A stretch of DNA of 64,000 nt from a virus (lineage: Duplodnaviria; Heunggongvirae; Uroviricota; Caudoviricetes), in IMG/VR virus record IMGVR_UViG_3300027963_000034, positions 1-64,000 of that record. The stretch is one strand, 5' to 3'. The notes beneath the pieces are model-generated. The model was not told where the DNA came from, searched no databases, and worked only from the letters and a program-made list of their open reading frames with translations. A program made the translations under genes and the position numbers. This document shows, piece by piece, positions 7,820 through 30,648 of the stretch (positions within the stretch are counted from its first letter, which is position 1; each line of letters begins with the position of its first letter).

Positions 7820-7868
7820 AGTTTATATTGTTTACACATATAAATATAACAAAATCAAAAAAGTCTAC

Positions 7869-11933: not shown

Positions 11934-11978
11934 TTTGTTTTGTTTTTAATTTCGTATATAAATATAAAAAAAATTAGT

Positions 11979-13618: not shown

Positions 13619-14260
13619 TTACTTAAATTTAAATCCTGTTAATTTTTCTATGTCTAAAACTTCTACTAAATTATTATGAATACCATCTGGTTTAGATGTA
13701 TCATTGTTAAAAAGAAATGCCATCCATTCTTTTGTTTTTACAAAATATATTACTTTCCAACATTGAATAGGAACTGCCACCTTACCTTCACCAATTGTTT
13801 TAGCTACTCCTAAATTACCACACCAAACATGAACTGAATCATCTTTCTTAGCCCACTCTCTTTCCATTGTTTCTACCGATTTCCAATCCCCAGCATTTAG
13901 GCTATGATATTGAGCTGCCATATTAGAAAAATAGAAACATTCATTTTGTATTTCAGCCGTTTGACACAGATTTTCTGCAGCCGGCATCATATGTCCTCTA
14001 TCGGTTCCACTACCTACATAATCAGCTCCTAAATTTGTTTCGTTTGGTAATTGAGGGTCAGGTTTAAAATTATCTTTTCTAGCCATTGGAGTTTCACATC
14101 CCACTTTAGCTTTTGTAATCCACCATTCCACCATTACAGGATATTTTTTTGATTTTGAATAGTGTGATGTGTAATTTGTGTGCTTCAAAACTACGATGTC
14201 TTGGGCAAATAACATATTAATTAATAATACACTAAATAAGGTTATTAAAACTTTTTTCAT
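13619..14260 (-). CDS. secreted DNA/RNA non-specific endonuclease (NucA-like)
   Basis: signal peptide, DRGHM, FYFSNMAAQ, LNAGDW. Confidence 0.9.
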   Translation of the reverse strand: MKKVLITLFSVLLINMLFAQDIVVLKHTNYTSHYSKSKKYPVMVEWWITKAKVGCETPMARKDNFKPDPQLPNETNLGADYVGSGTDRGHMMPAAENLCQTAEIQNECFYFSNMAAQYHSLNAGDWKSVETMEREWAKKDDSVHVWCGNLGVAKTIGEGKVAVPIQCWKVIYFVKTKEWMAFLFNNDTSKPDGIHNNLVEVLDIEKLTGFKFK

Positions 14261-15113
14261 CTGATACAACTTTGTTTTTAATTAAATAATCAATAACCAT
14301 TTCTGCCCATTTTTGATGTGCAAAATAACCAGGATGAGTATCATCAAAAATACCATCAGTTTCATCTTTTATTTTCATCCCATTCCCACTTGCCCAATTA
14401 TGAAAATCACAGTCTGTAAGACCGTTTTTACTCATATCGGGAGATAAATATAATATATTTTCTTTTATATCAATAAAATTTTTTATATAAGTTATGTGTA
14501 TTGCAGATGGTAATATATAAAATTTATATTCTTTGTATTTCATAAGAGCCAATAATCCAACAAAACTTTTTAAAATATTTTTTTCATATTCTTTTATATT
14601 CCAAGTTTTTTTATAAGCTTCTAATAGAGGTTGTTTTATATCTGCTTCTATTTCTTCTTTTTGTTTAGTAGATTCATAAAAATAGTCTTTACAAAGATGT
14701 AAATCCCGCATAGTTCCTTTTGTAAATGCGGTTTCATCGTATTCCATGCTAATTTCATTTAAATCTACATTACAAATTAAATATTCTTTGTATTTGTTAG
14801 AATATACATCAATTTTATTCCAAATTACAGGACATTCTATAAAATAAATTGTCTCTTTTGCTCTTGTAAAATCTTCGTATATGTAATCATACGTTTCTCT
14901 TATAAATCGTTCAATTCCAGCTCCAGATTTACTATAATCATGTATTTTTAAATTTAACCCATCCGCTACCAATTTAGGCCACATTATATCTCTTTCACTC
15001 TCCCAAGTAACATTATATCTAGATTTATAATAGTCTAAAATATCACTTTTTACAATTTCAAGACCACCACCACACATAGTAGAACATCCGTTACAATATA
15101 AATTTTTAATCAT
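14232..15113 (-). CDS. SGNH/GDSL-like hydrolase
   Basis: NGCSTMCGGG ... DTHPGYFAH. Confidence 0.6.
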   Translation of the reverse strand: MIKNLYCNGCSTMCGGGLEIVKSDILDYYKSRYNVTWESERDIMWPKLVADGLNLKIHDYSKSGAGIERFIRETYDYIYEDFTRAKETIYFIECPVIWNKIDVYSNKYKEYLICNVDLNEISMEYDETAFTKGTMRDLHLCKDYFYESTKQKEEIEADIKQPLLEAYKKTWNIKEYEKNILKSFVGLLALMKYKEYKFYILPSAIHITYIKNFIDIKENILYLSPDMSKNGLTDCDFHNWASGNGMKIKDETDGIFDDTHPGYFAHQKWAEMVIDYLIKNKVVSDEKSFNNLI

Positions 15114-15816
15114 TTTTTATAAATTTATTGTAAAAATATTCTGCTAAAATTTTATCACATTCTGCTGATAAATGTTGGTCATTTCTAATACCATCTTCAC
15201 CTTTTGTTTTTTCCCAAACATCATTCTGTGTTTCCCAATATCCAATTACTTCATTTATAATTCTGTTTTTACCATAAATAAAATCTGCTAAATATTGGTC
15301 ATTCCATGACCAAACAAATTTATTTTCTGTATTTGTTACTTTATATAGAGAACAAATTAATTCAAAATAATTTTGTAAAACGCCATGTGATATTCTATCA
15401 TATGCTGTTATTTTGATATATTGTTGTAAATCATCAATAGGTAATTTCATATCATCTATGGATTCTTTTATTCCATTATTTAATTTCATTCCATTATTTA
15501 CATAATTAAAAAAACAATTCAATTGATATGTCCATTCTTTTGGATGGTGTGGTGCGATATACACATAGTCATCTTTTAAAGCCAATCTATTACGCGAATA
15601 ATCGGTTAAATTTACTATTAAAATATCTTCTTTTTTAATTTTTGGTAAACATTTTGTCCAAAAATCTATAATGGTTTGCATATCCATACTACCTCCTGCA
15701 TAATTTCGTATTTTATACTCATCATTCAGTCCTTTTTCATTTAATATGGTTTGTAAATATCCTGGGAACTTTTCTTCCGTTGTGAAACTATCACCAAATA
15801 ACCAAATATCAATCAT
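15106..15816 (-). CDS. SGNH/GDSL-like hydrolase
   Basis: LFGDSFT ... DQHLS. Confidence 0.6.
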   Translation of the reverse strand: MIDIWLFGDSFTTEEKFPGYLQTILNEKGLNDEYKIRNYAGGSMDMQTIIDFWTKCLPKIKKEDILIVNLTDYSRNRLALKDDYVYIAPHHPKEWTYQLNCFFNYVNNGMKLNNGIKESIDDMKLPIDDLQQYIKITAYDRISHGVLQNYFELICSLYKVTNTENKFVWSWNDQYLADFIYGKNRIINEVIGYWETQNDVWEKTKGEDGIRNDQHLSAECDKILAEYFYNKFIKND

Positions 15817-15863: not shown

Positions 15864-17390
15864 TTATAATACCATCCTACTACCTATCTGAAAATTACTT
15901 AAAAAATTGGAAAATGGTTTAGTATTACCACTCAATTTGTAATTAGCAGAGAATCCAAATCTTTTACTAATTTTATAGTCAAATGCGGCACCTAATAAAA
16001 ATCCCATATGTCTATTGACAGTTGAAACACCAGTTGCACTATTATAACTTATAGGTGCAAACATTGTAAATACCTGTGGTGATATTGTAAGTTTTTTATT
16101 ATATTGATATGGTTTAGTCCAAAATACAATTGCCGAACTTGCCATATTGTATTCAAATCCACCCGTATTATCGTTTTTAAGGAATAGATTGATTACACCC
16201 ACATTATAACCATATGTTCCTTTTTTTGCAGTTGGTTTGATATATGTATATCCCAATAAGTTCATATAGTTTCCTCCCAAATATGCAATTCCCGTTCCGT
16301 ATGAATGTATTGCATCTAATTGTCCATCTTCGGTTAATCCCATCTTTGTTATACCACCCGTCATTACAATTGAACTTAAATTACTATTCACCATCAATCC
16401 TGCACTATAACTTACATCACCTGCTAGGGATGATTTACTAAGTCCTAATGATATAGATGCTAAAAAACTACCAGGAGTAGCTTCCATAACACTTACATCC
16501 GATGCTAATAAAGTTGGATTTGATGCTTCTTGTTTTTTCTTTTTTTCTTCCTTCTTCTCCTCTTTCTTTTTTTCCTCTTTTTTAGTTTCTTCCTTCTTCT
16601 CCTCTTTTTTCTCCTCTGATTTGGATTCTTCTTTTTTTTCTTCTTTGCTTTCCGATTTAGTTTCCTCTTTTTTTTCTTCTTGCTTTGTTTCAGTTTTCTT
16701 TTCTTCCTGTTTTTGTTCGGTTTTACTTTCAGTTTTAGCTTCTGTTTTAGTTTCGGTTTTACTTTCGGAAGATGAACTGCCCCCACTTTGTGACGAAGAT
16801 GAAGATGAACTGCCCCCACTTTGTGACGAACCTCCACTTGCCGGTGGTGATGAACTACTACTTGCCGGTGGTGGTGCTGCCGTTGGTGGAGGTGCAGTAA
16901 CTACCGGAGCGGGTGGGGGCGGCGGAATGTTTATCGGTGGTGGTGTAGCTGCATTTGCGGCGGCTGAACTAGCTGCTGAACTTGCCGATGAAGATGCTGC
17001 TTTTGCGGCCGCCTCTGCGGCTGCTTTTGCTGCTGCATCGGAGGCTGCTTTTGCTGCAGCATCCGCGGCGGCTTTTGCTGCTGCATCTGCGGCGGCTCTT
17101 GCTGCAGCTTCTTGTGCTAATCTTATGTTATCATTTACCGGACAAGGTTCAGCGAATACTGAATTAACCCATTTTTGAAATGCTCCACTATTCATATCTG
17201 CCAATGTTACAATTTTAGATTTACCTCTAATAACTGCAATGGTTTGATTTTGTCCGAATGGAATTACGACCACATATACTTTGTTATCGCATGGGTCTAT
17301 GTAAGTTTGGGTAATAGTTTGCCCTTCTGCTTCAAATGCAGTTAAGGTTGTAACAATTATCAATAAAAGTGTTACTAACCATTTTTTCAT
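15864..17390 (-). CDS. secreted protein: Ala/Pro/Ser/EK low-complexity stalk plus C-terminal beta-barrel-like domain
   Basis: signal peptide; AAAKAAxD repeats, poly-P, SSQSGGSSS x2, EEKK repeats; amphipathic beta-rich C-terminus. Confidence 0.65.
   Translation of the reverse strand: MKKWLVTLLLIIVTTLTAFEAEGQTITQTYIDPCDNKVYVVVIPFGQNQTIAVIRGKSKIVTLADMNSGAFQKWVNSVFAEPCPVNDNIRLAQEAAARAAADAAAKAAADAAAKAASDAAAKAAAEAAAKAASSSASSAASSAAANAATPPPINIPPPPPAPVVTAPPPTAAPPPASSSSSPPASGGSSQSGGSSSSSSSQSGGSSSSESKTETKTEAKTESKTEQKQEEKKTETKQEEKKEETKSESKEEKKEESKSEEKKEEKKEETKKEEKKKEEKKEEKKKKQEASNPTLLASDVSVMEATPGSFLASISLGLSKSSLAGDVSYSAGLMVNSNLSSIVMTGGITKMGLTEDGQLDAIHSYGTGIAYLGGNYMNLLGYTYIKPTAKKGTYGYNVGVINLFLKNDNTGGFEYNMASSAIVFWTKPYQYNKKLTISPQVFTMFAPISYNSATGVSTVNRHMGFLLGAAFDYKISKRFGFSANYKLSGNTKPFSNFLSNFQIGSRMVL
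16768..16830. repeat. 30-bp direct repeat x2 (coding, Ser/Gly linker)
   Basis: gaagatgaactgcccccactttgtgacgaa at 16768 and 16801. Confidence 0.85.
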
Positions 17391-18214
17391 TACTTATTGT
17401 TCAGTCCGATTGAGATTTGAGAATACCCTCTAATTGGGTCTGTATCTACTTTTAATGTAACGAATTTGAAATCTCTTATTAGTCCGATTTTGTATGTGGT
17501 GAATGATGTGTTTGATTTTGGGAATGAGATACCACCCAAGTCATCTTTACCTTGCCATCTAATCACTTCATTACCAAATCCAATCATACCATGTATTCCA
17601 ATTTTACCAATTCTTTTACCCGCACCAACATAGAAAGTTGACTCTTTTTTCCAATCCGTTTTACTAAGTGGAAAGTCAACATTGTTAATTTGACCATATG
17701 GATAGTATTGGTTTTGGTCTATTGCATAAGTCATTACATAATCCATAATGAAATATCCTTTATTACTACCAATCAATCCCCAAAATGCGGTTTGTTTATT
17801 ATTCGTATGTCCTATACCTGCTGAAAATAATACAGGTGTTGATGCAATTGTATCTCTCCTACCATTTTCGTATATTCTAACTACACTTCTTTGTCTCCAT
17901 CCGTAGTTATCATACCAAATGTAAGGATAAGGTTGATACCATCCCCATACACCATATTGTAAACCATATGGATTGTATGTTGTAGGTCTATATCTTCTTA
18001 CTAATGGTTGTCCTTCAAAGTTGTCACCAGGTCTAATTGGTGCAGTTTGTGTTCTCCATTGACTCACATTATTTTGTTGTGATATAGATGGTTGAACTCT
18101 TGTTTGTGTTTGAGTTGTTTGTGATGAACTACTTCCACCAGTTTGTCTCCAACTTGATACTTGTGAAAAAGATATCATCGGAATAACCAATAATAATATT
18201 AATAATTTTTTCAT
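17390..18214 (-). CDS. secreted/outer-membrane beta-rich protein
   Basis: signal peptide, Y/W/P-rich segment, alternating beta strands, terminal ISIGLN. Confidence 0.55.
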   Translation of the reverse strand: MKKLLILLLVIPMISFSQVSSWRQTGGSSSSQTTQTQTRVQPSISQQNNVSQWRTQTAPIRPGDNFEGQPLVRRYRPTTYNPYGLQYGVWGWYQPYPYIWYDNYGWRQRSVVRIYENGRRDTIASTPVLFSAGIGHTNNKQTAFWGLIGSNKGYFIMDYVMTYAIDQNQYYPYGQINNVDFPLSKTDWKKESTFYVGAGKRIGKIGIHGMIGFGNEVIRWQGKDDLGGISFPKSNTSFTTYKIGLIRDFKFVTLKVDTDPIRGYSQISIGLNNK

Positions 18215-18215
18215 A

Positions 18216-18566
18216 TTATTTTAATTCATTGTGTTTAATAATTAGTTCTCCCAAAACTTCAATTAGGCCCATAAGTTCCTGAAACCCTATTTGGTCCATT
18301 TTTACTTTACCACCACACAATTCTTCCATATATCCTCTTAACTCTTTTTTAGAGGATTCTATATCAAATTCACCATTTTTTGCTTTTTCGTAATATGGTA
18401 ATTTAACTTTAAAATGATGATATGTAAGAATTGCATCTCCACCTTTTTCTTTTGAATCGTTTGTTATTTTAGTAGCACCTTCCCATCTATTTCCTGAAAA
18501 ATCTAAAAACGGGTCAAATTCCCCACCATCATTTTCTTCTTTTAATAAATCTTTTAACTTTATCAT
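18216..18566 (-). CDS. hypothetical protein
   Basis: likely start MIKLKDLLKE. Confidence 0.6.
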   Translation of the reverse strand: MIKLKDLLKEENDGGEFDPFLDFSGNRWEGATKITNDSKEKGGDAILTYHHFKVKLPYYEKAKNGEFDIESSKKELRGYMEELCGGKVKMDQIGFQELMGLIEVLGELIIKHNELK

Positions 18567-18567
18567 A

Positions 18568-19290
18568 TTATTTAGTGAATACACCTTTTTTAATCATTTT
18601 ATCTAATATATTTGCACATGCTATATCTAATGCTTTTTTAGTTGAAATACTAATAGTTGATTGGTTAAACTTAATTGGGTCTATTGTTGCATCTGATAAT
18701 AGAGTTAATTGTCTATTTGTTTTAGCTTCACCCAGTCCACTTGCTGCTATAATTGTTCCGTTTTCTGCATTTGTAAATCTAACCTGTAAACCTAAACGAG
18801 TTACCAAATTATCTTTAATACCATCCTTTAAGTTGATAGTTTCATCTTCGGATACTGAATAATCATATACCTCAATCTCCACAAAGTAATGTGCCAACTT
18901 AATCTTCCCTCTACCATCTAATTTGTTTTCGGAAATTCCAGCTGCTGATGCTTGGTATTGCTTTACCATTCTATTCTTAATCTCAGTCTTATCTTCGGTA
19001 AATTCAAATCTATTGAGGTTGTCCAAATATTCTAATACGATATTTGCAACACCCAATCCAACTCTTTTTTCTTTTAGTTCAGGGTACATTTCATATACCT
19101 CCTCACCAATACCACATTTTAGGATTTGAATATTCTTTTTAGGGCCTTCATAATCCATAAATTGAGAAATGTCTTTCTTTTTTTCAAAATCTGCTTTGAA
19201 ATCTTCTGTTTTAGTGCTTCCTATTGTTTGAGCAACACCCGCAACACTGCTTAACAAAAATAAACTTAAAAATACTAATAAATTTTTCAT
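18568..19290 (-). CDS. CsgG/HfaB-like outer-membrane protein
   Basis: signal peptide; GLGVANIVLEYL..NRFEFTE, LQVRFTNAENGTII pattern of the CsgG family. Confidence 0.65.
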   Translation of the reverse strand: MKNLLVFLSLFLLSSVAGVAQTIGSTKTEDFKADFEKKKDISQFMDYEGPKKNIQILKCGIGEEVYEMYPELKEKRVGLGVANIVLEYLDNLNRFEFTEDKTEIKNRMVKQYQASAAGISENKLDGRGKIKLAHYFVEIEVYDYSVSEDETINLKDGIKDNLVTRLGLQVRFTNAENGTIIAASGLGEAKTNRQLTLLSDATIDPIKFNQSTISISTKKALDIACANILDKMIKKGVFTK

Positions 19291-19296
19291 ACATAA

Positions 19297-20013
19297 TCAT
19301 TTTTTATATAAATATAGATTTTCATCTTTATCAATACAAATAGCACTCATATTCTCTACCCAATCCCCAGAATTAACATAGTGTTTTCCGTTTATCATTC
19401 TATCTTCGGGTTGGTGTATATGCCCACACATTACCCCATCACATCCCTTTTTGGTTGCCATAGATAATGCAGTAACTTCAAAATCGTTTATGTAGTTTGT
19501 TGCTACCTTTACACCTGCCTTTATTTTTTGCGATATAGACTGATATGGAAGCTTTCTCCACTTTCGGTAATGATTGTACCACCTATTGAGTGTAAGTGCA
19601 AAATCATATCCTATTGCCCCTATTTTGGACAACCATTTATACTTTGTAATAAATACATCAATCACATCTCCGTGAAATATGTAATACTTTTTATTGGTCA
19701 ATTCCAAAACATAATCTTCTCTAATTTCAATGCCCCCAAAATGATTGTCAATAAATTCTTGTACAAATTCATCATGGTTACCTCTTATCCAAACTAATTG
19801 AGTTTTATTAGATAACTTTAACAATTTACTGATTACTTTTGTGTGTTGTTTTTTCCACTTTGTACCTCTATTCAATGCCCACCCATCTATTATATCTCCA
19901 TTCAAAATTAGTAGGTCGGTTGGATGTTGTTCTATAAATTCTATAAACTCTTCTGCTTTACTATCTTTTGTTCCCAAATGTAAATCAGATACTATGATTG
20001 CTTTATATTTCAT
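19297..20013 (-). CDS. metallophosphoesterase, UDP-2,3-diacylglucosamine diphosphatase (LpxH-like)
   Basis: SDLHLG, NGDIID, RGNHD, HGD, CGHIH, NSGDW; start 20013 by ATGA overlap. Confidence 0.85.
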   Translation of the reverse strand: MKYKAIIVSDLHLGTKDSKAEEFIEFIEQHPTDLLILNGDIIDGWALNRGTKWKKQHTKVISKLLKLSNKTQLVWIRGNHDEFVQEFIDNHFGGIEIREDYVLELTNKKYYIFHGDVIDVFITKYKWLSKIGAIGYDFALTLNRWYNHYRKWRKLPYQSISQKIKAGVKVATNYINDFEVTALSMATKKGCDGVMCGHIHQPEDRMINGKHYVNSGDWVENMSAICIDKDENLYLYKK

Positions 20014-20705
20014 TTCCAGTAATTGTGGTGTTTTTTGAAAAATTCTGTATTGTTTCGGTTGATGTAACATTTAATACTTAATATAAACATGTAAAAAAAT
20101 CCTTTATTCTTAAATCTTCTTGCCGATGTCCATACACCTTTGGTATTGTGTATCTTCATAGTTTCTGCTTTTTGTGAAACCCAATAATCTTCTGCAAATA
20201 AGTGTGTTTCATCATATCCGCCAGTTTTCCAATATGCTTCGGTTTTCCATAATTGAAATCCACCAATTGCGAATGGTGTTGCTAACCAATTACTTAATCG
20301 TTGTTGAATATCAAACAATCTAAATATCCAATTGAATCCTACTTCGGTTTGAAATGGTACAGTCACTAAATCGGTATTATATGCTAAACATTCACCTAAT
20401 ATAAATTTATCCTGCAACATTATGTCCGCATCTAAAAATAGTATGTAGGGTGTGGTTACTAATTTACTACCTTCTAATCTTGCCTTTGCAGGAAACCCAC
20501 CTTTAATTAGTTCAATATTTAGTGAATATCGGTAGTTATCCTCCGTATATTGTAAAAAATTTAAACTATCCTCCTCATCGGAAGTATCTGCAATAATAAC
20601 TCTAGTTCCTGCGAATCCCACTTGCTTTGCAATAAATCCAATACACTCATATATGTTATCTCTTTCATTTTTACAAGGTATTACGATTGTTAATAAGTTA
20701 TTCAT
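20010..20705 (-). CDS. GT2 glycosyltransferase
   Basis: IVIPCKNE, LFLDAD, GGYDE..AED, TSARRF. Confidence 0.85.
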   Translation of the reverse strand: MNNLLTIVIPCKNERDNIYECIGFIAKQVGFAGTRVIIADTSDEEDSLNFLQYTEDNYRYSLNIELIKGGFPAKARLEGSKLVTTPYILFLDADIMLQDKFILGECLAYNTDLVTVPFQTEVGFNWIFRLFDIQQRLSNWLATPFAIGGFQLWKTEAYWKTGGYDETHLFAEDYWVSQKAETMKIHNTKGVWTSARRFKNKGFFYMFILSIKCYINRNNTEFFKKHHNYWK

Positions 20706-20715
20706 AGTAATAAAT

Positions 20716-20743
20716 AAAAAACCCCCACATTAAGTGAGGGTTT
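20716..20743 (-). terminator. intrinsic terminator
   Basis: AAACCCTCAC-TTAAT-GTGGGGGTTT-TTT. Confidence 0.75.
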
Positions 20744-20759
20744 CAATGTTAATAAATTG

Positions 20760-21035
20760 TTATCCTAATTCTTCGGTTTCGGCTTCTAATTTAGCTGCAT
20801 CATGTTCTGATTTTCGGTTAATGTATTTATCCACCGATGCAATTCCGAATGAACCCAATGTGATTACTAAAAATCCGTTGAATATGTATTCGTTAATCAA
20901 TAATGGTTTACCCATCCAGCCTGTGATAAGGTCTACGAATAGAGCAATTACCATACATCCGAATGATAAGAAACCAACTACTGATTTTTCGTTGATATCG
21001 TTGTTGTCTTTGAAAAGGTCTTTAATAAATCCCAT
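20760..21035 (-). CDS. two-TM membrane protein (holin-like)
   Basis: two hydrophobic helices, charged C-terminus. Confidence 0.5.
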   Translation of the reverse strand: MGFIKDLFKDNNDINEKSVVGFLSFGCMVIALFVDLITGWMGKPLLINEYIFNGFLVITLGSFGIASVDKYINRKSEHDAAKLEAETEELG

Positions 21036-21072
21036 AGTTTTTTGTTTTAATTGTTAATACTATGTAACCGGT

Positions 21073-21648
21073 TTATCCTTTATATTCTTCTTGTAAAAGT
21101 CCACAATTTTGACACTCCATATGTCCGTCTCCGTCAGCATCTCCCCATACATGCTCACATTGTCTATGTGCATGATGTTCAAATTCTAATTTTTCCATTT
21201 CTTGTTCATGTTCTTGTTGGTCTTTCTCTAACTCAAAATTTTGTTGATTTTCGGTTACTGCCAATCTACTTGCAGCAGCTGCACCTTGTACAAATGCGTC
21301 TGGTATTAATGGTGTAATTGGTTTGTTACTTTCTTTTATGTCATTAACACTTCCTAATGCTACACCATCTTCTTCATCCATTTTTTGAACTAACATTTTA
21401 TCCTTATCGGTATCACTAAACCAATAGTCGATAATTTTACCATAAGAACCAATGAATGCTCCTAATAACAATAATAGAAGTTCTTTCCATTCTGCTGCCA
21501 TTTTAGTTCCAACTGCAATTGCAGTGAACATACCTGCAATTATCATCATAAAACCACCCAATACCATAGCGGAGATATACCATCTTCTACTCATCATTGA
21601 GTTTAACAATTGCTTAAATCCATCCGGTGCTTGTTTATTTTCTGCCAT
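21073..21648 (-). CDS. membrane protein (holin-like) with C-terminal Cys/His motif
   Basis: LLLLLGAFIGSYGKIIDYWF; C.H.W...ECQNCG tail. Confidence 0.5.
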   Translation of the reverse strand: MAENKQAPDGFKQLLNSMMSRRWYISAMVLGGFMMIIAGMFTAIAVGTKMAAEWKELLLLLLGAFIGSYGKIIDYWFSDTDKDKMLVQKMDEEDGVALGSVNDIKESNKPITPLIPDAFVQGAAAASRLAVTENQQNFELEKDQQEHEQEMEKLEFEHHAHRQCEHVWGDADGDGHMECQNCGLLQEEYKG

Positions 21649-21736
21649 TTTGTTTACTTTGTTTATTTGCATGTGTTATTGCCCATACAAAAAATATTAT
21701 AAAAAACGATGTAACTCCAATTTTATACCAATCCAT
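21635..21736 (-). CDS. putative small membrane peptide (33 aa)
   Basis: MDWYKIGVTSFFIIFFVWAITHANKQSKQNGRK; not in ORF track. Confidence 0.45.
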   Translation of the reverse strand: MDWYKIGVTSFFIIFFVWAITHANKQSKQNGRK

Positions 21737-21739
21737 AGA

Positions 21740-22045
21740 TTACCACTTTGGTGCTTCTTCTTTGAATTCGTCTCCTTCTTTCTTTTTGGGTTTTGGTGCT
21801 GGTGCTGCTTTACCATCTCCACCTTTGTTGATGATTACAGTTTTACCTGCTGCTTGAGATTGTTGGTTAGAATTTGTAATGTTGATTACAGGAGCTGCCG
21901 TTGGGGTAGCTGTTTCTTTGTCATCTCCACCTGTTAACTTTGTTGTAAACCAACCACCTACACCCAATGTGATTGTACTCACTAAACCGATGAGTATATT
22001 CTTAATAGAACCACCGGTGCTTTCTGATTTTTCTTCGTCTGCCAT
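21740..22045 (-). CDS. single-TM protein
   Basis: one TM helix, Pro/Lys-rich tail. Confidence 0.6.
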   Translation of the reverse strand: MADEEKSESTGGSIKNILIGLVSTITLGVGGWFTTKLTGGDDKETATPTAAPVINITNSNQQSQAAGKTVIINKGGDGKAAPAPKPKKKEGDEFKEEAPKW

Positions 22046-22056
22046 TTTATTTGTTT

Positions 22057-22437
22057 TTATATTTTATTAAAATCTGTTATTCCTAATTGATTGCCATTTG
22101 CATCAAATAACGCAATTCTATATGCCGATGATGGTAATGCTGATGTATATACTTTCAATACATTATCACCCGCTTTCACATCACTTGTTGACTTTGATAC
22201 AACTCTATTAGATATGTCAAAAATTTTAATAGTCACAGTTTGTGCTATCTCACTTTTAACATTCATAGACACTTGTGATGTTACAAATGGTGATTCTAAT
22301 TTGATACCACTTACACTATTGATTGCCAATTCGGATGGGATTTGGTTTATGGGTGTAGGTACATCTACCTTTCTACAACTTAATGCCAAAAGGGTTACTA
22401 AAAATCCTAGTCCTAAAATTTTGTCAATTTTTCTCAT
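22057..22437 (-). CDS. lipoprotein with T9SS type-A CTD-like domain
   Basis: lipobox LALSC; IKIFDISNRVV..G.N..TSALPSSAYRIAL..G..DFNKI. Confidence 0.6.
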   Translation of the reverse strand: MRKIDKILGLGFLVTLLALSCRKVDVPTPINQIPSELAINSVSGIKLESPFVTSQVSMNVKSEIAQTVTIKIFDISNRVVSKSTSDVKAGDNVLKVYTSALPSSAYRIALFDANGNQLGITDFNKI

Positions 22438-22438
22438 T

Positions 22439-22783
22439 TTACTTTACTATTATGTTTGTTTTTGCTATTTGTTTCTTACTCTCGTCTTGCAATAACAGAT
22501 ATAAATATTTAATTGAAAACGATTTAGTGTAAATTTTCTTTTTATTTATACCGATTTGTCCAGTAAACCTTTCTCTTGTCAAAACCTGATTGTTTACACT
22601 ATCACCAATTGTCATAGTATAAACACCATTTTGTGTTAATTCAAATTGTATTTCTTGTCCGTTTTCAACACTACTCTCTGCAACATCAAATATTTTTACA
22701 TTTTCAGGAGGTGGAGTTGGTATAACTTCTACCTTCTTACATGCAACCAAACACAAACATAATATGAATAATATCTTTTTCAT
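22439..22783 (-). CDS. lipoprotein, paralog-like of 22057
   Basis: lipobox LVAC; CKKVEV.PTP similar to CRKVDVPTP; beta-rich, ends NIIVK. Confidence 0.55.
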   Translation of the reverse strand: MKKILFILCLCLVACKKVEVIPTPPPENVKIFDVAESSVENGQEIQFELTQNGVYTMTIGDSVNNQVLTRERFTGQIGINKKKIYTKSFSIKYLYLLLQDESKKQIAKTNIIVK

Positions 22784-23670
22784 TAAAATTGAAAGTTTGT
22801 TCCTATCATAAATAGGATTGGGTTACTCTTTTTATATCCAACTGATTCACTTAATTTATCCCAAGTTGTATTATATCTGATATTGGTATTCAATACAAAC
22901 CTCTTAGTTATCTTCCAATCAATAGATGTTCCATAATATAAGTCTAAATTGAAATCATCTACATATGCTAAATCCGATTCAGTACCATCTTTGAATACTT
23001 TGTAGATATCACTCATTGCGAATATTTGTGGTGATATGTTTACTCTCTTTGTTTTCAATGTATATGTGTACATCACCATACCCCTATAACTTATTTCACT
23101 AGATGCTGGCATCATTGGATATATTAAATCTTTAAAATTACCATTTTCATCTACCGTATATTTTCCTTCCCACTCACCTTCGTATGTTCCCCAAAATGAT
23201 TTTGATGCAATTACACTATATCCAAATGTCCCAAACTTTTTAGTTCTAAATACATCTATGAATGATAGGGTAATATCTTTTTGGAAATCAAAATCCGTTG
23301 AATAGAATGATTGTATTGTGGTTGTTCTTTTATCCGTATTTCTAGTGAAACCATATCCAACACCATAGTAGTTCCATATAGGATTTATTGATGCTGCAAA
23401 TGTATGGCCCCATTGACCATTCATAGATGATTTATGATACCCTAAATTAAGAGTAGTAGATACTTGTCTACCAATTACACCTATTGAAAGATTTGATGAT
23501 GAAAGTACATCTTTTGAAAAATTAACATAGGATTGTAATATACCCACATCGTTCCAATCATCACTTTCTCCGAATAATTCCTTTGGAGATAGCTGTAATG
23601 TATCTGGGGTTTGTGCGTTTGACACAAATGCAATTAAAACTAACGATATGATTAATAATAGTTTTTTCAT
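22783..23670 (-). CDS. outer-membrane beta-barrel-like protein
   Basis: signal peptide, aromatic amphipathic strands, terminal IGTNFQF beta-signal. Confidence 0.65.
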   Translation of the reverse strand: MKKLLLIISLVLIAFVSNAQTPDTLQLSPKELFGESDDWNDVGILQSYVNFSKDVLSSSNLSIGVIGRQVSTTLNLGYHKSSMNGQWGHTFAASINPIWNYYGVGYGFTRNTDKRTTTIQSFYSTDFDFQKDITLSFIDVFRTKKFGTFGYSVIASKSFWGTYEGEWEGKYTVDENGNFKDLIYPMMPASSEISYRGMVMYTYTLKTKRVNISPQIFAMSDIYKVFKDGTESDLAYVDDFNLDLYYGTSIDWKITKRFVLNTNIRYNTTWDKLSESVGYKKSNPILFMIGTNFQF

Positions 23671-23966
23671 TTATATAATAAATCTAATATTTTACTTTTG
23701 AATTCTCTGTAAAAAACTGATTCGATGCTCCACCCCATAAGTTCGTCTTTTCTTATCCTATATCTATATCCGTCAAATATAAATTTTTCAGTCTCAATAT
23801 CATCTATTAGATAAGCCACTTCCATATCTACTTCTTCTTCTTCTCTTCTATATTGATTATACCAACTACTAGGAACTTGAATAAAACACTTAACATTTAC
23901 AATTTTATATTTACCTGTGTGAGAGATAAAATTCTTCATCTCATTATAGTCAAATGATATATTCAT
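23667..23966 (-). CDS. hypothetical protein
   Basis: ORF in gene train. Confidence 0.55.
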   Translation of the reverse strand: MNISFDYNEMKNFISHTGKYKIVNVKCFIQVPSSWYNQYRREEEEVDMEVAYLIDDIETEKFIFDGYRYRIRKDELMGWSIESVFYREFKSKILDLLYK

Positions 23967-23981
23967 AATTTTTTTGTTTTT

Positions 23982-26279
23982 TTATTTCATTCTAATTTTT
24001 AATGTTGTTCCTGCTTTATTAACTGCATCCATAAATCCAACTGAAACCAATCCCAATATGTTATCTAATTTTGTTTTAGTTGTAAATGTAATTTTATATT
24101 CCGTTGTATTATTTAAAACACCACCATCAGTAATCAATGAACCAAAATTCACATAATCACCTTTGTCCGTTCCATAATTGGTTGGTGAACCGATTGTTTT
24201 ATAAGATACATTCATAAACTTTAACAAACTATTATCGTAATTTAAGTGTAATTGAGTTCCTACTAATTCTTGTTGTAATGGGTCTATTGTAATATATGCA
24301 TAAACACTATCACCCATTATTTCAGTTATGATTGATGCGTTGATTTCGTTTGATATTGGTGAACTCATTGTTTTAACACTCATACTACTTCTAACCGAAT
24401 TGCTTGCGGTTGTATTAATTACAGGTATTGCTGAATGTGAAAGGTTTACATCACCTCTCCAACTTACACTAACATTATATGTGTTATTAAGTGTTCCGGT
24501 ATTTAAACTGAATGGATATAAACTTCTTGTTGAGTTGAATTGTGTATTCCAATTTGATTTTGTAATTCCATCATATTCCGATTTACCATAAAGTTTCATC
24601 AAGTATGTTAATGTTGAATATTGTGTAAGTGATTCTACACCTGTTAAATGTTGTAATAATTTGTATGTATCCGTTTCATTAAATAAACCATCACCCGTTA
24701 CATCTGCGTTCATATACTGAATACCATACCCGAATTCATTACCCGTTTCATTGCCAAATAATCCACGATTTGATAATTCTTTAAATGCCAAATATACATC
24801 TGCAACACCAACAATACTACTATACAATGTGTTTAAATCCGTTTGATTTGTATATGATAAATCAATACCATGTTGTTTATATGACATTATTGGTGAGAAA
24901 GTAAATTCGGCTCTAGTTCCATACCAACCATCTTGTAATCTTAATTGTGCTTGAAATGTTGATGAAGTTATTTTGGTTGTTAAATTACCAGGCATTACAT
25001 ATGTTTTCCACCAACCACTTACACTATAAACACTAACAGGCCCATCGTATATATCAAATAATTTAATTGATGTTATATCGTTTGGAGATACTCCTGTTCC
25101 ATCAAATTCTCTTTCATCTATTAATAATTGATGCCCACCTAAATTTGCATCATATGGATTTATTATTGCCCATTCAACCTGCCCTGCCGTTGTTGTTGCT
25201 TTAACCCCACCACCACTTATCTTTAAGGTATCTAAATCATTTGTAATATCTGCTTTACCTAAACCACTTATTGCTCTTGATGTATTGGTTGTTGTACCCC
25301 ATACATTGTTTACATAGGTGTTTGCTTTTGCTGAGAATTTAGTTTCATCTACATTACCACCAAAGTCAAAATTGAATCGTGCAGTTAGGACTTCTCCGTT
25401 TGAGTGAGTTACCGAATTAGTATAAAATTCAGTAAATGTTGCATCATCTGGATTAGACCAAGTTCCATATTCAATTACATACGGATTTGAAAAATGGTTT
25501 GGTAAATCATTCCATTGAGAACCACCACCCCATTTAGTTACTGCGTAATCTTCATCACCACTATTGTTTGGTTCACCACCTGCCCAGTTATTATATTGAC
25601 CAGGAATGTTTCCGTTTGTTTGTCCGTTATTTATTTTGATTAGAGTTCCCTTTTCAGGTCCTGCATCAATTGTCCATCTTGCTTCACTTACTTCATCCGT
25701 TAATGCAAACCATATATTACCTTGTGGTACATTATTGAAAATAAAAGCATCTTCATCTGCCGAAGTGATTGTTACCAAATATCCAGTTTGACCTTTGAAT
25801 GTTGTTAATAGGGATGCTGCTCTCGCTGCCGTATAAGTTGCTCCGGTTGTTATTGGTCTATAAAAGTGTCCGTTTACACCATTGTAATAATATCCCGTTG
25901 GGTTTATAGTTGCGGCTACTGATAATACAACATTACCTCTTACCGAACCCGTATTTACTTTTAAGGATGTCAATGCGGTATTAATGTTTGCCATTGTTCC
26001 TGTAACCACCAAACGAGTTTTATTACCACTTAAAGTAAATCCACTTGCTGCGGTTAGACCTGTTGTTGTGTTTAATACGAATGTTGTACCTGATGGTGGA
26101 TTAACTAAACTGATTGATGCTAATAGAGTTGCCGTAGAACTAAATCCACTCAATACAAATCCACTTGCATCTTGCCCAGTTGTGGATGGTAAAAAAGATT
26201 TAGAGTCCGGAGCAGATACACTCTGTCCAAACCCTAAAAATGATATTAAAAGAAATAATGTAACTAATAGGTGTCTCAT
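23982..26279 (-). CDS. secreted adhesin-like protein: C-type-lectin-like, dockerin-like and C-terminal cohesin-like domains
   Basis: signal peptide; NWAGGEPNNSGDEDY..WNDL; ADVTGDGLFNETD; LVGTQLHLNYDNSLLKF. Confidence 0.65.
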   Translation of the reverse strand: MRHLLVTLFLLISFLGFGQSVSAPDSKSFLPSTTGQDASGFVLSGFSSTATLLASISLVNPPSGTTFVLNTTTGLTAASGFTLSGNKTRLVVTGTMANINTALTSLKVNTGSVRGNVVLSVAATINPTGYYYNGVNGHFYRPITTGATYTAARAASLLTTFKGQTGYLVTITSADEDAFIFNNVPQGNIWFALTDEVSEARWTIDAGPEKGTLIKINNGQTNGNIPGQYNNWAGGEPNNSGDEDYAVTKWGGGSQWNDLPNHFSNPYVIEYGTWSNPDDATFTEFYTNSVTHSNGEVLTARFNFDFGGNVDETKFSAKANTYVNNVWGTTTNTSRAISGLGKADITNDLDTLKISGGGVKATTTAGQVEWAIINPYDANLGGHQLLIDEREFDGTGVSPNDITSIKLFDIYDGPVSVYSVSGWWKTYVMPGNLTTKITSSTFQAQLRLQDGWYGTRAEFTFSPIMSYKQHGIDLSYTNQTDLNTLYSSIVGVADVYLAFKELSNRGLFGNETGNEFGYGIQYMNADVTGDGLFNETDTYKLLQHLTGVESLTQYSTLTYLMKLYGKSEYDGITKSNWNTQFNSTRSLYPFSLNTGTLNNTYNVSVSWRGDVNLSHSAIPVINTTASNSVRSSMSVKTMSSPISNEINASIITEIMGDSVYAYITIDPLQQELVGTQLHLNYDNSLLKFMNVSYKTIGSPTNYGTDKGDYVNFGSLITDGGVLNNTTEYKITFTTKTKLDNILGLVSVGFMDAVNKAGTTLKIRMK

Positions 26280-27922
26280 TATTCTACTATTAGATTAATT
26301 TTTTTACCACTCCCATCAACTGCGTCAGCTAAAACCGTATAGAATAAACCAGCAGTATTTGCTAATGTTTCTTTTGGAGTAAATGTTAATCTATATGGTG
26401 TACCTGTTTTAATTCTACCCGTCTTAATCTGGTCCATTGAACCAAATGTCAATCTACCTTCGTTATTTGTTGAAAAGTTTACCACATTAGAACCGGCATC
26501 AAACGCAACATTATCAAAAGTTAATTTAGTATTATCATATTGTAAAATTACTTCCAAACCTGCTAATCCTTCTTTTGTTAATGTACCTGTCAACACTACT
26601 TTACCATTTGCAATTGTAGAATTCAAACTTAAAGTTGCACTTTCTATTTTTGGTGTATAACTCATACTTCCAACTGAAAATGATTGGATTGTATTTCCGA
26701 TTGAATTTGTGTAAATACCCGCACTTATCTTACTTGCAATTGTGTCAGGATGAGATGAATGTGACCAATCCAAATCTCCACCCCATGCAAATACTGCATC
26801 TACTGTTTGATTTGAGTTAGTTACATATACTCTATTTTTAGGAGTTCCGTCTAACCAACTTTGATTTAATAAACCACTATACCATCTTACTGATGACGAT
26901 GTTGATTTTGGAATTGATGCTACTGAATCTACATTTATTCCCATCACATGAGCAAATATGTTATATGAATCACTTTCACTAAATGTAGTTTTACCTATTG
27001 TAACTAAACCAACTTTCTTTTCTAATACAGGTCTTGTAAAGTATGTAGATACGCCAGTAATATCAGTTTGTGCAACACCTAAAAATGCTTTATATGCATC
27101 CGATACAGTCACAATGTTATTCATAAATGATTTTTGGAATGTTGCTCCTACAAATACACCAACACTATCACCAACTTTAATACCTGATGTAAATGTTGCT
27201 TCACCACTTGCATCCAATGCTTTTTGTTGAATTGGAGATTGTGTCCAATCTATATCACCACTACCATCCGATTTCAATTTCATCAATTGTATGTTATGGT
27301 CTGTGATTGCATATCCCGATGGGAATAAAACTCTAACTTTGAATTGAGATGTATTACCCGTTATATTAGACAAAGACATTGTACCTGGGTCAGTTGTAAT
27401 TGGAGAAATATATGCACTTGCCGCATCTACTGAATATGCCAAATCCAATTTGTGAATATTAGTATACTCACCCAAATCTTTGATTACATATTTTTGAGTT
27501 GCGATGTCTCCGTTAATTGATGCATCGGTTCTTTGTATAGTCAATTGCCCTACATTCCAATCCGAATTAGCTGCGTAAGACCAAGGAGATGCTAAATATT
27601 GTGCGTATAAACTTGTTGCAGCAATACTATTTGCCGTACTTGCTGTAAATCTATAAGATGTCCAACCAGTATAATATGTTTGAACAGATGTTCCTTGTGA
27701 GAATGTAGTTGAAACATATGCCAATGCTTTATTGTTATATTGGTATCTCAACCAAAAATAACGAGGTGTAGTTGTACCCCTTACGACTGTGTATTTAACT
27801 GAAATTGTATCTCCAACTTTTAATCCGGTTGTTGGTGTTACCGATTGATTAATCGTTAATTGACTAAACGATTGTAGGGCGAACAATAAAATTGCGCCAA
27901 TAAGTAATGTGATTTTTTTCAT
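26279..27922 (-). CDS. secreted protein with cohesin-like N- and C-terminal domains and a degenerate dockerin-like region
   Basis: signal peptide; LRYQYNNKALAY, VTVSDAYKAF, WGGDLDWSHS (cf. WRGDVNLSHS in 23982), LAGLEVILQYDNTKLTF. Confidence 0.6.
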   Translation of the reverse strand: MKKITLLIGAILLFALQSFSQLTINQSVTPTTGLKVGDTISVKYTVVRGTTTPRYFWLRYQYNNKALAYVSTTFSQGTSVQTYYTGWTSYRFTASTANSIAATSLYAQYLASPWSYAANSDWNVGQLTIQRTDASINGDIATQKYVIKDLGEYTNIHKLDLAYSVDAASAYISPITTDPGTMSLSNITGNTSQFKVRVLFPSGYAITDHNIQLMKLKSDGSGDIDWTQSPIQQKALDASGEATFTSGIKVGDSVGVFVGATFQKSFMNNIVTVSDAYKAFLGVAQTDITGVSTYFTRPVLEKKVGLVTIGKTTFSESDSYNIFAHVMGINVDSVASIPKSTSSSVRWYSGLLNQSWLDGTPKNRVYVTNSNQTVDAVFAWGGDLDWSHSSHPDTIASKISAGIYTNSIGNTIQSFSVGSMSYTPKIESATLSLNSTIANGKVVLTGTLTKEGLAGLEVILQYDNTKLTFDNVAFDAGSNVVNFSTNNEGRLTFGSMDQIKTGRIKTGTPYRLTFTPKETLANTAGLFYTVLADAVDGSGKKINLIVE

Positions 27923-27923
27923 T

Positions 27924-28577
27924 TTATTTATCTCCTAATAGTTTGGTGATTAATTTATCAGAACCTTTTTTAAGTGCGTTACTCAATGATGTCTGGTTAA
28001 ATTTACCACCCTCATCTACTATAAGAGTCGACATTGAGATTTCTGACGAACTTTCTTCTACTATAACCTCTTTGTCTTTTTTACCATCTTTATATAGTGT
28101 ACCTTTTAAGCGAATTACCACTTCTTCTTCTCCACTATGAAATACGGATATGTTCTTTTTTGTTGTAAGAACATCTAAAAATATAATTGAAACTTTTAAT
28201 TTTTGTGTTGCATCTGGTGATAAGTCTAATCCTCTTTCTTGCAAATACTCTTCTAAAATATTCTTAACACCAAATTCTAATTTTCTATTTCCTGCTAATT
28301 TACCAATTTTAACTTCATTAGTAACGGATTCAACCCAAATATGGTCCTCTGCTTTATAAAATATATTTTCTGGTGAATTTTTAAATGTACCATCTAACCT
28401 CCAGTTAATTCCATTTACAATTCTTTGTATTCTTTCCGTTTGACCTGTCATTTCTAAAAATACAAATGTTAATTGTAATACTAATGCCGATATTACAAAT
28501 CCAATAAATAGATAGAGCATCCAAAATATAGCTCTCTCTTTCAGGCTTACTACCAGTGCTGTTACTTTTTGTTTCAT
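27924..28577 (-). CDS. membrane-anchored divergent CsgG-like protein
   Basis: FGVKNILEEYL and KFNQTSLSNALKK mirror LGVANIVLEYL and KFNQSTISISTKK of 18568. Confidence 0.5.
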   Translation of the reverse strand: MKQKVTALVVSLKERAIFWMLYLFIGFVISALVLQLTFVFLEMTGQTERIQRIVNGINWRLDGTFKNSPENIFYKAEDHIWVESVTNEVKIGKLAGNRKLEFGVKNILEEYLQERGLDLSPDATQKLKVSIIFLDVLTTKKNISVFHSGEEEVVIRLKGTLYKDGKKDKEVIVEESSSEISMSTLIVDEGGKFNQTSLSNALKKGSDKLITKLLGDK

Positions 28578-28599
28578 TATTTCCGTTTTACTTTACGGA

Positions 28600-28609
28600 T
28601 ATAAATATA
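28600..28609 (-). promoter_or_regulatory. TATATTTATA promoter-like motif heading the outer-membrane module
   Basis: same motif precedes ATGs at ~7839, 8176, 11957, 30136, 30630. Confidence 0.55.
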
Positions 28610-28639
28610 ACCAAAATTCCAAATACCGATAATACTCTT

Positions 28640-29285: not shown

Positions 29286-30122
29286 TTATGCCAACAAATG
29301 ATAATACTCTTTGAAGTGTTTGATTCTATCGGCCAATCCAATAGTACCACCATTTACTCTTTTTGTGATTGAGGTTACAACTGCTTCAGTTGCTCCACCA
29401 TCAGCCATTTTGTGTAATCCATTTTTATTGAAGAACCACGCTGCTGATAATAATGCATATTTTTCAGCTACTACTTGTGGGTTAGCACAAACATCTTCAC
29501 CGATTGATTTACCAAATGCAGTATAGTTGTCTTTACCTGTTAATTGGATATAACCTCTACCACAAAATTTTGCACCATCCCCACTGCTTTCAGGTCCGTT
29601 ACCCATTCTACCACCATATACTTTGTTAGCAATCTTTTCTGGTTGTCTAGCATATGCAGCTGCTGCAGCTTCGGTTGGAAAATATTTCTTAAAGATACCA
29701 TTCAACCCTTTAGCTGAATAGTTTAAGTTTTCTTTTGTTAAACGGAATCCACCACTTTCATGTCCACATTGTGCTAAGAAGTGTGCTAATCTTAATGCAG
29801 AATCAATTTGAAATTTTTGTGCTACTGCAGGAATCATTGCAATAACTGCATCTGGAATGTGTCCTTTTAATTTTTCTAATTTCAAACCCGTAGAGTTAGA
29901 TACTGCTACCGCTTGCTGTTTTACTTCCGGATGCTCTTCTTCACCCATAATCATTGCCCAGGTCTTATCGCCTACAATACCATCCGCTGCTAAGCCATGA
30001 GCTGCTTGCCATAACTTAACTGCTTCTTCGGTTTTGGGTCCGAAGTTACCTACCGGGTCTAAATGTAATTTAACTTGAAGTTGTTTAACTTGTTCGTTGT
30101 TATCTCCTTTTCTTAATAGCAT
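29286..30122 (-). CDS. endolysin: peptidoglycan-binding domain plus GH19 catalytic domain
   Basis: GNFGPKTEEAVK..Q..GL.ADGIVGDKT; FLAQCGHESGGF, GRGYIQLTGKDNY, ITKRVNGG. Confidence 0.92.
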   Translation of the reverse strand: MLLRKGDNNEQVKQLQVKLHLDPVGNFGPKTEEAVKLWQAAHGLAADGIVGDKTWAMIMGEEEHPEVKQQAVAVSNSTGLKLEKLKGHIPDAVIAMIPAVAQKFQIDSALRLAHFLAQCGHESGGFRLTKENLNYSAKGLNGIFKKYFPTEAAAAAYARQPEKIANKVYGGRMGNGPESSGDGAKFCGRGYIQLTGKDNYTAFGKSIGEDVCANPQVVAEKYALLSAAWFFNKNGLHKMADGGATEAVVTSITKRVNGGTIGLADRIKHFKEYYHLLA

Positions 30123-30174
30123 ATTAATTGTTTAATATAAATATATTTCAATTTTGAAAAGGGATAATATTATT

Positions 30175-30303: not shown

Positions 30304-30332
30304 AATTAGTTATTTTCCGATTTACTTTACTC

Positions 30333-30602: not shown

Positions 30603-30648
30603 TTGTTTTTGTTTTTGTTTTGAATTAAATATAAATATAAAAAAATTT

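Follow-up and report, generated by a model that had tools for sequence, protein, structure and literature searches.

Partial curli (type VIII secretion) clusters with csgG and csgF have been described in pelagimyophages of the HTVC008M group and in the OM43 phage Melnitz (PMC7029224, PMC9004378). Here we describe what would be a different use of the CsgG fold in IMG/VR virus record IMGVR_UViG_3300027963_000034 (Caudoviricetes), of which positions 1 to 64,000 were analysed (hereafter the window, 64,000 nucleotides). The region 15864-28577 of the window carries, on the minus strand, a module of 16 tightly packed genes, 12 of whose products have a Sec signal, a lipobox or membrane helices. On balance it is probable, if only just, that this is a phage-encoded host-envelope module whose products give the outer envelope of infected Flavobacteriia a glycan-binding protein layer or scaffold, within it or on its surface, and thereby modify what the cell binds or exposes.

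The module resembles the pelagimyophage and Melnitz clusters in that T4-like aquatic phages carry a CsgG-family gene among hypothetical exported proteins, with no recognisable curlin subunits and no assigned purpose. In those clusters CsgF is present and CsgG was modelled with a full barrel, whereas the present module has no CsgF and its CsgG-like protein is unlipidated and has short polar hairpins. The module also encodes what those clusters do not, namely separate barrels, cohesin/dockerin/lectin proteins and lipoproteins resembling the C-terminal sorting domain (CTD) of the type IX secretion system (T9SS).

As in the PelC-PelB and LptE-LptD pairs, in which a lipoprotein ring or plug works with a separate barrel, a protein of CsgG-like fold is encoded beside a barrel protein. 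However, neither the Pel nor the Lpt proteins are homologous in sequence to those of the module, the phage CsgG-fold protein is not lipidated, the phage barrel is 12-stranded in the model with an N-terminal stalk, and the core module has no polysaccharide synthase. Cellulosomes and the T9SS-linked assemblies of Bacteroidota likewise combine cohesins and dockerins on secreted modular proteins with carbohydrate-binding heads, and the cohesin of a cultured relative, Flavobacterium phage vB_FspM_immuto (hereafter immuto), carries a genuine T9SS CTD. Unlike those assemblies, the one proposed here is encoded by a lytic phage, has no enzymes, and places dockerin-like and cohesin domains on one polypeptide, and the window copies are without a CTD. 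Literature searches found no paper describing the module.

Gene content and conservation of the proposed envelope module

The G+C content of the window is about 30% and the minus strand carries all genes. N-terminal Sec signals were found in g15864, g17390, g18568, g22783, g23982 and g26279, lipoboxes in g22057 (LALSC) and g22439 (LVAC), and membrane helices in g27924, g21740, g21073 and g20760. The remaining four of the 16 genes encode cytoplasmic proteins, a family-2 glycosyltransferase (GT2), an LpxH-like metallophosphoesterase and two small open reading frames (ORFs). Conservation was scored by tblastn of every window protein against 159 IMG/VR loci, and the genes of the core are given below with the number of these loci that carry them.

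27924..28577, minus strand: g27924, 217 amino acids, N-terminal anchor (residues 23-41) and periplasmic domain, first gene of the module; 151 loci
26279..27922, minus strand: g26279, 547 amino acids, Sec signal, scaffold-like, with a degenerate dockerin-like segment and a C-terminal cohesin; 137 loci
23982..26279, minus strand: g23982, 765 amino acids, Sec signal, N-terminal domain, C-type lectin, variable middle, dockerin-like loop and C-terminal cohesin; 142 loci
22783..23670, minus strand: g22783, 295 amino acids, Sec signal, outer-membrane barrel by homology, ending in NFQF; 42 loci, 85-93% identity
22439..22783, minus strand: g22439, lipoprotein of 114 amino acids with a C-terminal immunoglobulin (Ig)-like domain (CTD/DUF3244-like); 104 loci
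22057..22437, minus strand: g22057, lipoprotein of 126 amino acids, lipobox Cys21 invariant; 125 loci
21740..22045, minus strand: g21740, 101 amino acids, membrane helix and Q/N/P/K-rich tail ending in W; 125 loci
21073..21672, minus strand: g21073, 199 amino acids, two hydrophobic helices, C-terminal region acidic and containing a Cys/His cluster; 122 loci
20760..21035, minus strand: g20760, 91 amino acids, two membrane helices; 52 loci
18568..19290, minus strand: g18568, 240 amino acids, Sec signal without lipobox, CsgG family and fold; 135 loci
17390..18214, minus strand: g17390, 274 amino acids, Sec signal, no cysteine, W/Y/Q-rich N-terminal part, family consensus ending in GLNNF; 63 loci
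15864..17390, minus strand: g15864, 508 amino acids, Sec signal, stalk and C-terminal barrel (residues 294-508); 104 loci

The preliminary description of this region, made from the sequence alone, had taken these genes for a phage-encoded cluster, and this was borne out; the genes are also co-conserved in order. The order 27924-26279-23982-(22783)-22439-22057-21740-21073-(20760)-18568-(17390)-15864 was fixed in more than 40 long IMG/VR contigs, with the stalk-barrel gene relocated in one subgroup of relatives. IMG/VR held 132 relatives of g26279 and 502 of g18568, and immuto provides a cultured relative. Median identity across loci was 82% for g18568 and 85% for g22783, 60-64% for the large proteins, 52% for g15864 and 42% for g17390. 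Since it occupies 10-12 kb of genome in a fixed order and includes two very slowly evolving parts, the module must pay its way. The phages that carry it are common in lakes, with hundreds of IMG/VR contigs and 890 relatives for one barrel protein alone.

Among 185,579 species genomes the sole match to the large proteins was a 3.4-kb contig binned to a Schleiferiaceae metagenome-assembled genome (MAG), and P0139 had no relative among the species genomes. Megablast of the region against GenBank phages gave no match. Searches of Pfam, NCBIfam and PHROGs with single sequences returned almost no matches for the exported proteins, so that family profiles and member-by-member scans were required.

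The block is surrounded by replication and metabolism genes and is distant from the structural module of the phage. The preliminary description had argued that the Sec signals speak against ordinary virion proteins, and we agree: nearly all products are exported, and therefore these are not ordinary virion proteins. It is extremely improbable that the products are stored in the periplasm and, once the cell has lysed, attach to virions or debris. A weak PHROG match links the stalk of g15864 to a "virion structural protein" family (E=2.5e-4), but this match is confined to the low-complexity region, and the products bear Sec signals, lipoboxes and outer-membrane barrels and are encoded far from the structural genes.

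The module of the cultured phage immuto

Immuto (NC_055915) carries a compact version of the module in the same order (gp012-gp019), also among replication and nucleotide-metabolism genes. Its gp012 is a secreted nuclease, the counterpart of the window gene at 13619..14269, and lies directly upstream of the lectin gene gp013, whose product has a Sec signal and a Lectin_C domain (3e-15). The gene gp014 stands between the lectin gene and gp015, in which a cohesin (5.9e-9) is fused to a true T9SS CTD (Por_Secre_tail 2.4e-8, 34.6 bits against a cut-off of 27); GenBank labels gp013 and gp015 as lectin and cohesin proteins. The gp016 product is the counterpart of g21740 (E=1.1e-4) and gp017 is CsgG-like with 56% identity. 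The layout of gp018 is that of g15864, with an N-domain, a low-complexity stalk and a barrel, while gp019 is a relative of g27924 (E=1.2e-4) with a cleavable signal peptide. As immuto and its host Flavobacterium sp. LMO8 are both cultured, the function of the module is directly testable.

The position of the immuto genes bears on the question of whether the module is a lysis-associated envelope cassette, in which the endolysin would be assisted by the membrane proteins, lipoproteins and barrels, these serving like holins and spanins to set the time of lysis or to break up the outer membrane. An endolysin-like gene and a gene for a two-helix protein of 61 amino acids lie directly upstream of the module in the window and in some relatives, and the module holds small membrane proteins and outer-membrane lipoproteins. 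The endolysin was, however, near the module in only 27 of the 159 loci, and in immuto the two are separated by about 8 kb that include tRNA and queuosine genes. The periplasmic domains are not coiled-coil and spanin-like, and it is not evident what lectin, cohesin and PA14 heads would do in lysis, so that we regard this explanation as very improbable.

The CsgG-fold protein g18568

Sequence and structure agree that g18568 is a member of the CsgG family. A search of the full library gave 208 representative relatives, down to 23% identity, and their profile matched Escherichia coli CsgG in the PDB (E=2.3e-5). The window sequence alone had no Pfam match, while 15 of 34 relatives matched Pfam CsgG (PF03783; best 1.9e-17) and 6 of 34 matched LpoB. 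The AlphaFold2 (AF2) model of g18568 had a predicted local distance difference test score (pLDDT) of 79.8. With this model the top ten Foldseek matches were all CsgG (E about 1.6e-7), and VIA ranked CsgG first (Z 13.0, root-mean-square deviation 3.2 A, 158 residues aligned), followed by CT253, Cj1090c and PelC (Z about 10; PelC 10.0), FlgT and LptE (Z 8.8).

CsgG has two long amphipathic hairpins per subunit, which together make a 36-stranded transmembrane barrel. The phage protein lacks features that define the curli channel. The signal peptide of the phage copies ends in VAGVAQ/T, without a cysteine, while distant bacterial relatives have L-x-G-C. Relative to E. coli CsgG, the equivalent of transmembrane (TM) hairpin 1 falls short by six residues; it is rich in D, E and K (SVSEDETINLKDGIKDNL) and charged on both faces. 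The TM2 equivalent comprises about 22 residues; taking TM2 of E. coli CsgG, unaligned, to have about 38, the phage equivalent would be about 16 residues shorter. Hairpins were short in all 34 relatives. The lack of the lipid-anchor cysteine together with short polar hairpins in a phage CsgG-like protein is a new observation made here. These two properties make a curli-type pore less likely for g18568 than a periplasmic ring, soluble or bound to a partner, that lies below a barrel formed by another protein.

The preliminary description had gone from CsgG homology to a secretion pore. The family assignment stands; the step to a pore is weakened by the missing lipobox, the missing long hairpins and the missing curli partner genes. 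The corresponding explanation is a true type-VIII-like system, in which g18568 would be an outer-membrane pore exporting unfolded substrates that polymerise outside into a fibre or lattice; candidate substrates would be the Q/N-rich tail of g21740, the stalk protein and the two large proteins, which are free of cysteine. In its favour, both sequence and fold comparisons place CsgG first, and residues Y69-P70 (YPEL) are nearly invariant and align where the constriction loop of CsgG (YPASNF) begins. The absence of cysteine from the large proteins would also suit such export, and pelagimyophages and phage Melnitz provide partial curli clusters as precedents (PMC7029224, PMC9004378). Against it, the phage copies lack the lipobox cysteine, both hairpin equivalents are shortened, that of TM1 being charged on its two faces, and the module supplies barrels of its own. 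No CsgE, CsgF, CsgA or CsgB was found among the module proteins with Pfam, NCBIfam and PHROGs. We consider curli-type secretion unlikely.

Distant relatives of g18568 occur in other contexts. Three metagenomic proteins of about 520 amino acids (P0200, P0222 and P0230) have the CsgG-like domain fused to a C-terminal caspase (Peptidase_C14). In a Cloacimonadota MAG (L161:1532-9899) a CsgG-like homologue follows two large Por_Secre_tail proteins (T9SS cargo) and a GLUG-repeat protein, and is itself followed by a protein of 413 amino acids in which an N-domain, a K/E linker and a barrel-like C-terminal part with a final F can be made out by eye. Despite this module-like layout the 413-residue protein had no detectable homology to the phage barrels and was rejected as their homologue. 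The bacterial contexts were likewise set aside as a guide to function, being diverse (T9SS cargo, kinase and cytochromes, caspase fusions) and offering no explanation.

Outer-membrane barrel proteins

Of the three beta-barrel proteins proposed in the preliminary description, the one with a long low-complexity stalk is g15864 and the one ending in F is g22783. In g15864 an N-domain of about 65 amino acids with a conserved Cys pair is followed by an Ala-rich helical repeat and a disordered stalk, first Pro/Ser/Gly-rich and then Lys/Glu-rich; its low-complexity sequence is put at about 150 residues and the stalk at about 200. The AF2 model of the last 215 residues showed 12 long strands (pLDDT 84.6). 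The top Foldseek match was NanC, a porin of 12 strands (E=3.8e-5); the barrels of TamA, BrkA, EspP, FapF and invasin came next. In the VIA comparison all 50 rows were outer-membrane barrels (Z 10.8-14.5), with CymA, PgaA and PelB at the top (PelB Z 13.6). By these model comparisons the C-terminus of g15864 is confirmed as a 12-stranded outer-membrane barrel.

The C-terminus of g15864 aligned with g22783 (hhalign 93.7%, E=1.9e-7), and by this homology g22783 is assigned as an outer-membrane barrel and paralogue of it. The third protein, g17390, has no sequence relationship with these two and had no PDB or family match; its C-terminal part of about 150 amino acids may be a small barrel. Profiles of the barrel families gave no meaningful match to PDB sequences. 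A home-made count of amphipathic strands was discarded as a barrel test, as it did not separate barrels from cytoplasmic controls.

A 12-stranded barrel following a long linker and an N-terminal domain is also the arrangement of FapF and of the type V autotransporter translocators, and BrkA, EspP, FapF and invasin were among the Foldseek matches. There is, however, no sequence similarity to these translocators, they matched no better than NanC or generic porins, and no plug helix or passenger was identified in g15864.

Large proteins with lectin, dockerin-like and cohesin domains

The two large proteins had been described as paralogues with cohesin- and dockerin-like segments, one of them with an EPN/WND C-type lectin motif, and the family searches substantiated this, for the dockerin in part. 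The last 290 or so amino acids of g23982 and g26279 are related (E=3e-14), and neither protein contains any cysteine. In the g23982 family Pfam matches were obtained for Lectin_C in 14 of 15 members (best 1.2e-6), Cohesin in 7 (best 7.3e-6) and Dockerin_1 in 5 (best 5.4e-4).

The lectin domain of g23982 spans residues 136-280 approximately. The window copy scored just below the PF00059 cut-off (E=5.8e-4, 21.0 bits against 22.6), and the family profile matched mannose-binding proteins (E=1.9e-4) with GEPNN and WND aligned. Residues E236-P237-N238 and W256-N257-D258 were invariant in the 15 family sequences, which share 53-96% identity; the conserved disulfide bonds of animal C-type lectin domains are absent from this cysteine-free protein. 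The head is predicted to be a calcium-dependent lectin of EPN type for sugars of the mannose/glucose/N-acetylglucosamine class.

The dockerin-like loop of g23982 is located at 524-537 (NADVTGDGLFNETD). It is the one good dockerin loop (DVTGDGLFNETD) of the protein, with invariant D526, E535 and D537; the first dockerin repeat of g23982 and the dockerin copy of g26279 are without calcium ligands. The profile of the shared C-terminal domain matched the ScaB cohesin 4ums (E=0.002), and the Pfam-positive cohesin (PF00963) of immuto gp015 aligned with the C-terminal domain of g26279 (hhalign 87%, E=3.8e-6). Taken singly, the window cohesin copies were below Pfam detection. A second, N-terminal cohesin-like domain in g26279 is possible, the alignment with cohesin reaching 29% only, and the full-length g26279 profile gave no meaningful match to PDB sequences.

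Through dockerin-like segment and cohesin the two large proteins would be able to dock onto one another, and because each has both domains a filament or lattice is possible. Such a cohesin-dockerin-lectin assembly would be the first one known from a virus, and the module as a whole would be a second, different phage use of the CsgG fold.

At about 16 related loci (L031:11659-13575, L027:11656-13575 and about 14 more) the middle-dockerin-cohesin chassis was the same but bore a PA14-like head where the N-domain and lectin would be. The PA14-like head matched the Lap adhesin 6m8m (E=0.0024) and RsgI3 (E=0.013). Such swapping of heads is what would be expected if the ligand is a variable glycan, and the exchange between C-type and PA14 heads points to an arms race about a glycan of the cell surface, which may itself be a receptor or defence determinant in Flavobacteriia.

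Lectin and PA14 heads on cohesin-dockerin scaffolds resemble the surface glycan-binding assemblies of bacteria, and Flavobacteriia, the hosts of such phages, live on polysaccharides. The scaffold might thus be an aid to glycan capture or attachment that tethers the infected cell to polysaccharide particles or algae, so that it stays fed or in position until lysis, and has nothing to do with competition between phages. The module proteins, however, include no catalytic glycoside hydrolase or transporter, and the CsgG-fold protein, the barrels and the secreted nuclease would be left unexplained; we hold this to be distinctly unlikely.

Lipoproteins and membrane-anchored proteins

Paralogy links the two lipoproteins, g22057 and g22439 (E=9e-7). 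In each of them the lipobox cysteine is invariant, and a linker of only about 30 residues separates this lipidated Cys from the Ig-like domain, with no cargo domain. They had been described as carrying T9SS-CTD-like domains. Their lipoboxes and paralogy are clear, while the CTD-like Ig domain was detected below threshold only: g22057 matched Por_Secre_tail (PF18962/TIGR04183) with E=0.0032 and 18.2 bits, below the cut-off of 27. At E<=0.01, 11 of 52 members of the lipoprotein family matched Por_Secre_tail; DUF3244 was matched by 18 of 52 and FlgD_ig by 4 of 52. The lipoprotein profile gave no meaningful match to PDB sequences. A "CTD-like fold" is as far as these sub-threshold data allow the domain to be named. 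The idea that the lipoproteins are the detached CTD of the cohesin protein found no support, since the CTD of immuto gp015 was not matched by their profile.

The most widely kept part of the module, g27924, had been described as a second CsgG-like protein. The motifs which it was said to share with g18568 were found again, GVxNI.xEYL by eye and KFNQ..S..KK by alignment, but by alignment the likeness is confined to the C-terminal helix. The last 27 residues, which form the KFNQ..S..KK helix, aligned with the CsgG-like family (65%, E=5.9e-5), whereas the whole-domain hhalign gave 17%. A weak match to Pfam Lipoprotein_16 was seen (E=0.0015), PF03923 being found in 19-30% of the Atlas cluster members, and the g27924 family profile had no match in the PDB.

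Proposed function

The folds and families, the export signals, the co-conservation and the exchange of heads are shown above. Put most cautiously, exported proteins of a conserved phage module would come together in the host's outer envelope and there present an exchangeable head for glycan binding on a cohesin/dockerin chassis. The assembly, surface location and purpose that we infer for the module are as follows. During infection a set of phage proteins of constant composition would be exported by the Sec pathway of the host. An outer-membrane platform would consist of the stalked 12-stranded barrel g15864 and its paralogue g22783, probably together with the small barrel g17390. Beneath a barrel, g18568, having neither lipid anchor nor membrane-spanning hairpins, would probably be docked as a periplasmic ring, comparable to PelC with PelB or LptE in LptD. 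The partners g27924, g21740, g21073 and g20760 would be anchored in the inner membrane. The cysteine-free g23982 and g26279 would dock via dockerin-like segment and cohesin, with g23982 presenting the lectin head, and the two lipoproteins would contribute a T9SS-CTD-like Ig domain. The most likely use would be to alter what the cell surface binds or exposes. The preliminary description had named aggregation, grazer defence and superinfection exclusion as candidate purposes.

Two uses of such a layer can be proposed. T9SS-dependent receptors might be masked against further phage adsorption, which would concern superinfection and the loss of progeny on debris, or the infected cell might be stuck to glycan-bearing particles or cells. 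According to two reports, resistance of Flavobacterium to phages maps to gliding and T9SS genes (10.1101/2020.10.02.323337, PMC9804748), so that T9SS-dependent surface structures matter for adsorption. Accessory genes inserted in the module encode envelope enzymes (GT2, LpxH-like). In view of the resistance loci, of the secreted nuclease that accompanies the module and of these accessory genes, we favour receptor masking or superinfection exclusion, or altered adhesion.

Several observations weigh against a surface scaffold of this kind. The large proteins of the window are without a T9SS CTD and the CsgG-fold protein is not channel-like, so that there is no evident route across the outer membrane, and the module proteins could remain in the periplasm. 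The CTD-like call for the lipoproteins is sub-threshold, and the true CTD of immuto gp015 is not matched by their profile. The barrel matches are generic, many unrelated barrels scoring at Z 11-14, so that their specific ranking is uninformative, and the hairpin argument for g18568 comes from an alignment and one monomer model, not from an oligomer.

A bolder version, which we consider unlikely, is that a widespread clade of freshwater Bacteroidota phages builds a trans-envelope apparatus of its own from inner-membrane anchors, a non-lipidated CsgG-fold ring in the periplasm and stalked 12-stranded barrels, with an exchangeable lectin (C-type or PA14) on a cohesin-dockerin scaffold at the cell surface that masks T9SS-dependent phage receptors or glues cells together. 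If true, it would be a virus-encoded, cellulosome-like surface coat for superinfection exclusion or an armour against decoys.

Accessory and neighbouring genes

The accessory genes of the module and the features next to it are the following, with loci counted as above.

23667..23966, minus strand: ORF of 99 amino acids, cytoplasmic accessory; 7 loci
20718..20744, minus strand: terminator-like hairpin of 11 pairs with a T run, directly after g20760
20010..20705, minus strand: family-2 glycosyltransferase, cytoplasmic accessory; 18 loci
19297..20070, minus strand: LpxH-like metallophosphoesterase, cytoplasmic accessory; 17 loci
18216..18584, minus strand: ORF of 122 amino acids, cytoplasmic accessory; 2 loci
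29286..30122, minus strand: neighbouring endolysin-like gene (PG_binding_1 and GH19), adjoining the module in 27 loci
13619..14269, minus strand: DNA/RNA non-specific endonuclease with a Sec signal (Endonuclease_NS 1.1e-39), outside the region first described

The product of 19297..20070 aligned over its full length with models of UDP-2,3-diacylglucosamine diphosphatase, below the equivalog cut-offs (62.6 bits against 134 and 42.8 against 190), and by these scores is named LpxH-like only. The secreted nuclease may belong to the envelope module, for example in the periplasmic degradation of incoming DNA. Just downstream of it, at 13179-13616 on the minus strand, lies a gene for an S-adenosylmethionine decarboxylase-like protein (AdoMet_dc, 1.6e-13). 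Between the nuclease and the module, at 14232-15816 on the minus strand, two cytoplasmic proteins with SGNH/GDSL-like motifs are encoded, one starting with MIDIWLFGDSFT and the other with DTHPGY near its end; neither had a family match and both are variable among relatives. In the 210-nt gap upstream of the endolysin (30123-30332, minus strand) an unlisted ORF of 42 codons was found, whose very basic peptide starts with MAKAKGGSNSNK.

A scan for sigma-70 promoters did no better than on shuffled sequences. The 12-mer TTATATTTATAT, allowing at most one mismatch, was located on the minus strand at 30135-30146, 28599-28610, 19306-19317, 7838-7849, 11956-11967 and 30629-30640. Its total count was not above that of shuffled sequences, and 10 of 12 matches were on the coding strand. 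Four genes, namely the endolysin, g27924, the CsgG-like gene and the ORF 7190-7819, have a copy 13-33 nt upstream of their start codon. The 12-mer may be a phage promoter element, in which case the CsgG-like and barrel part of the module would have its own transcription start.

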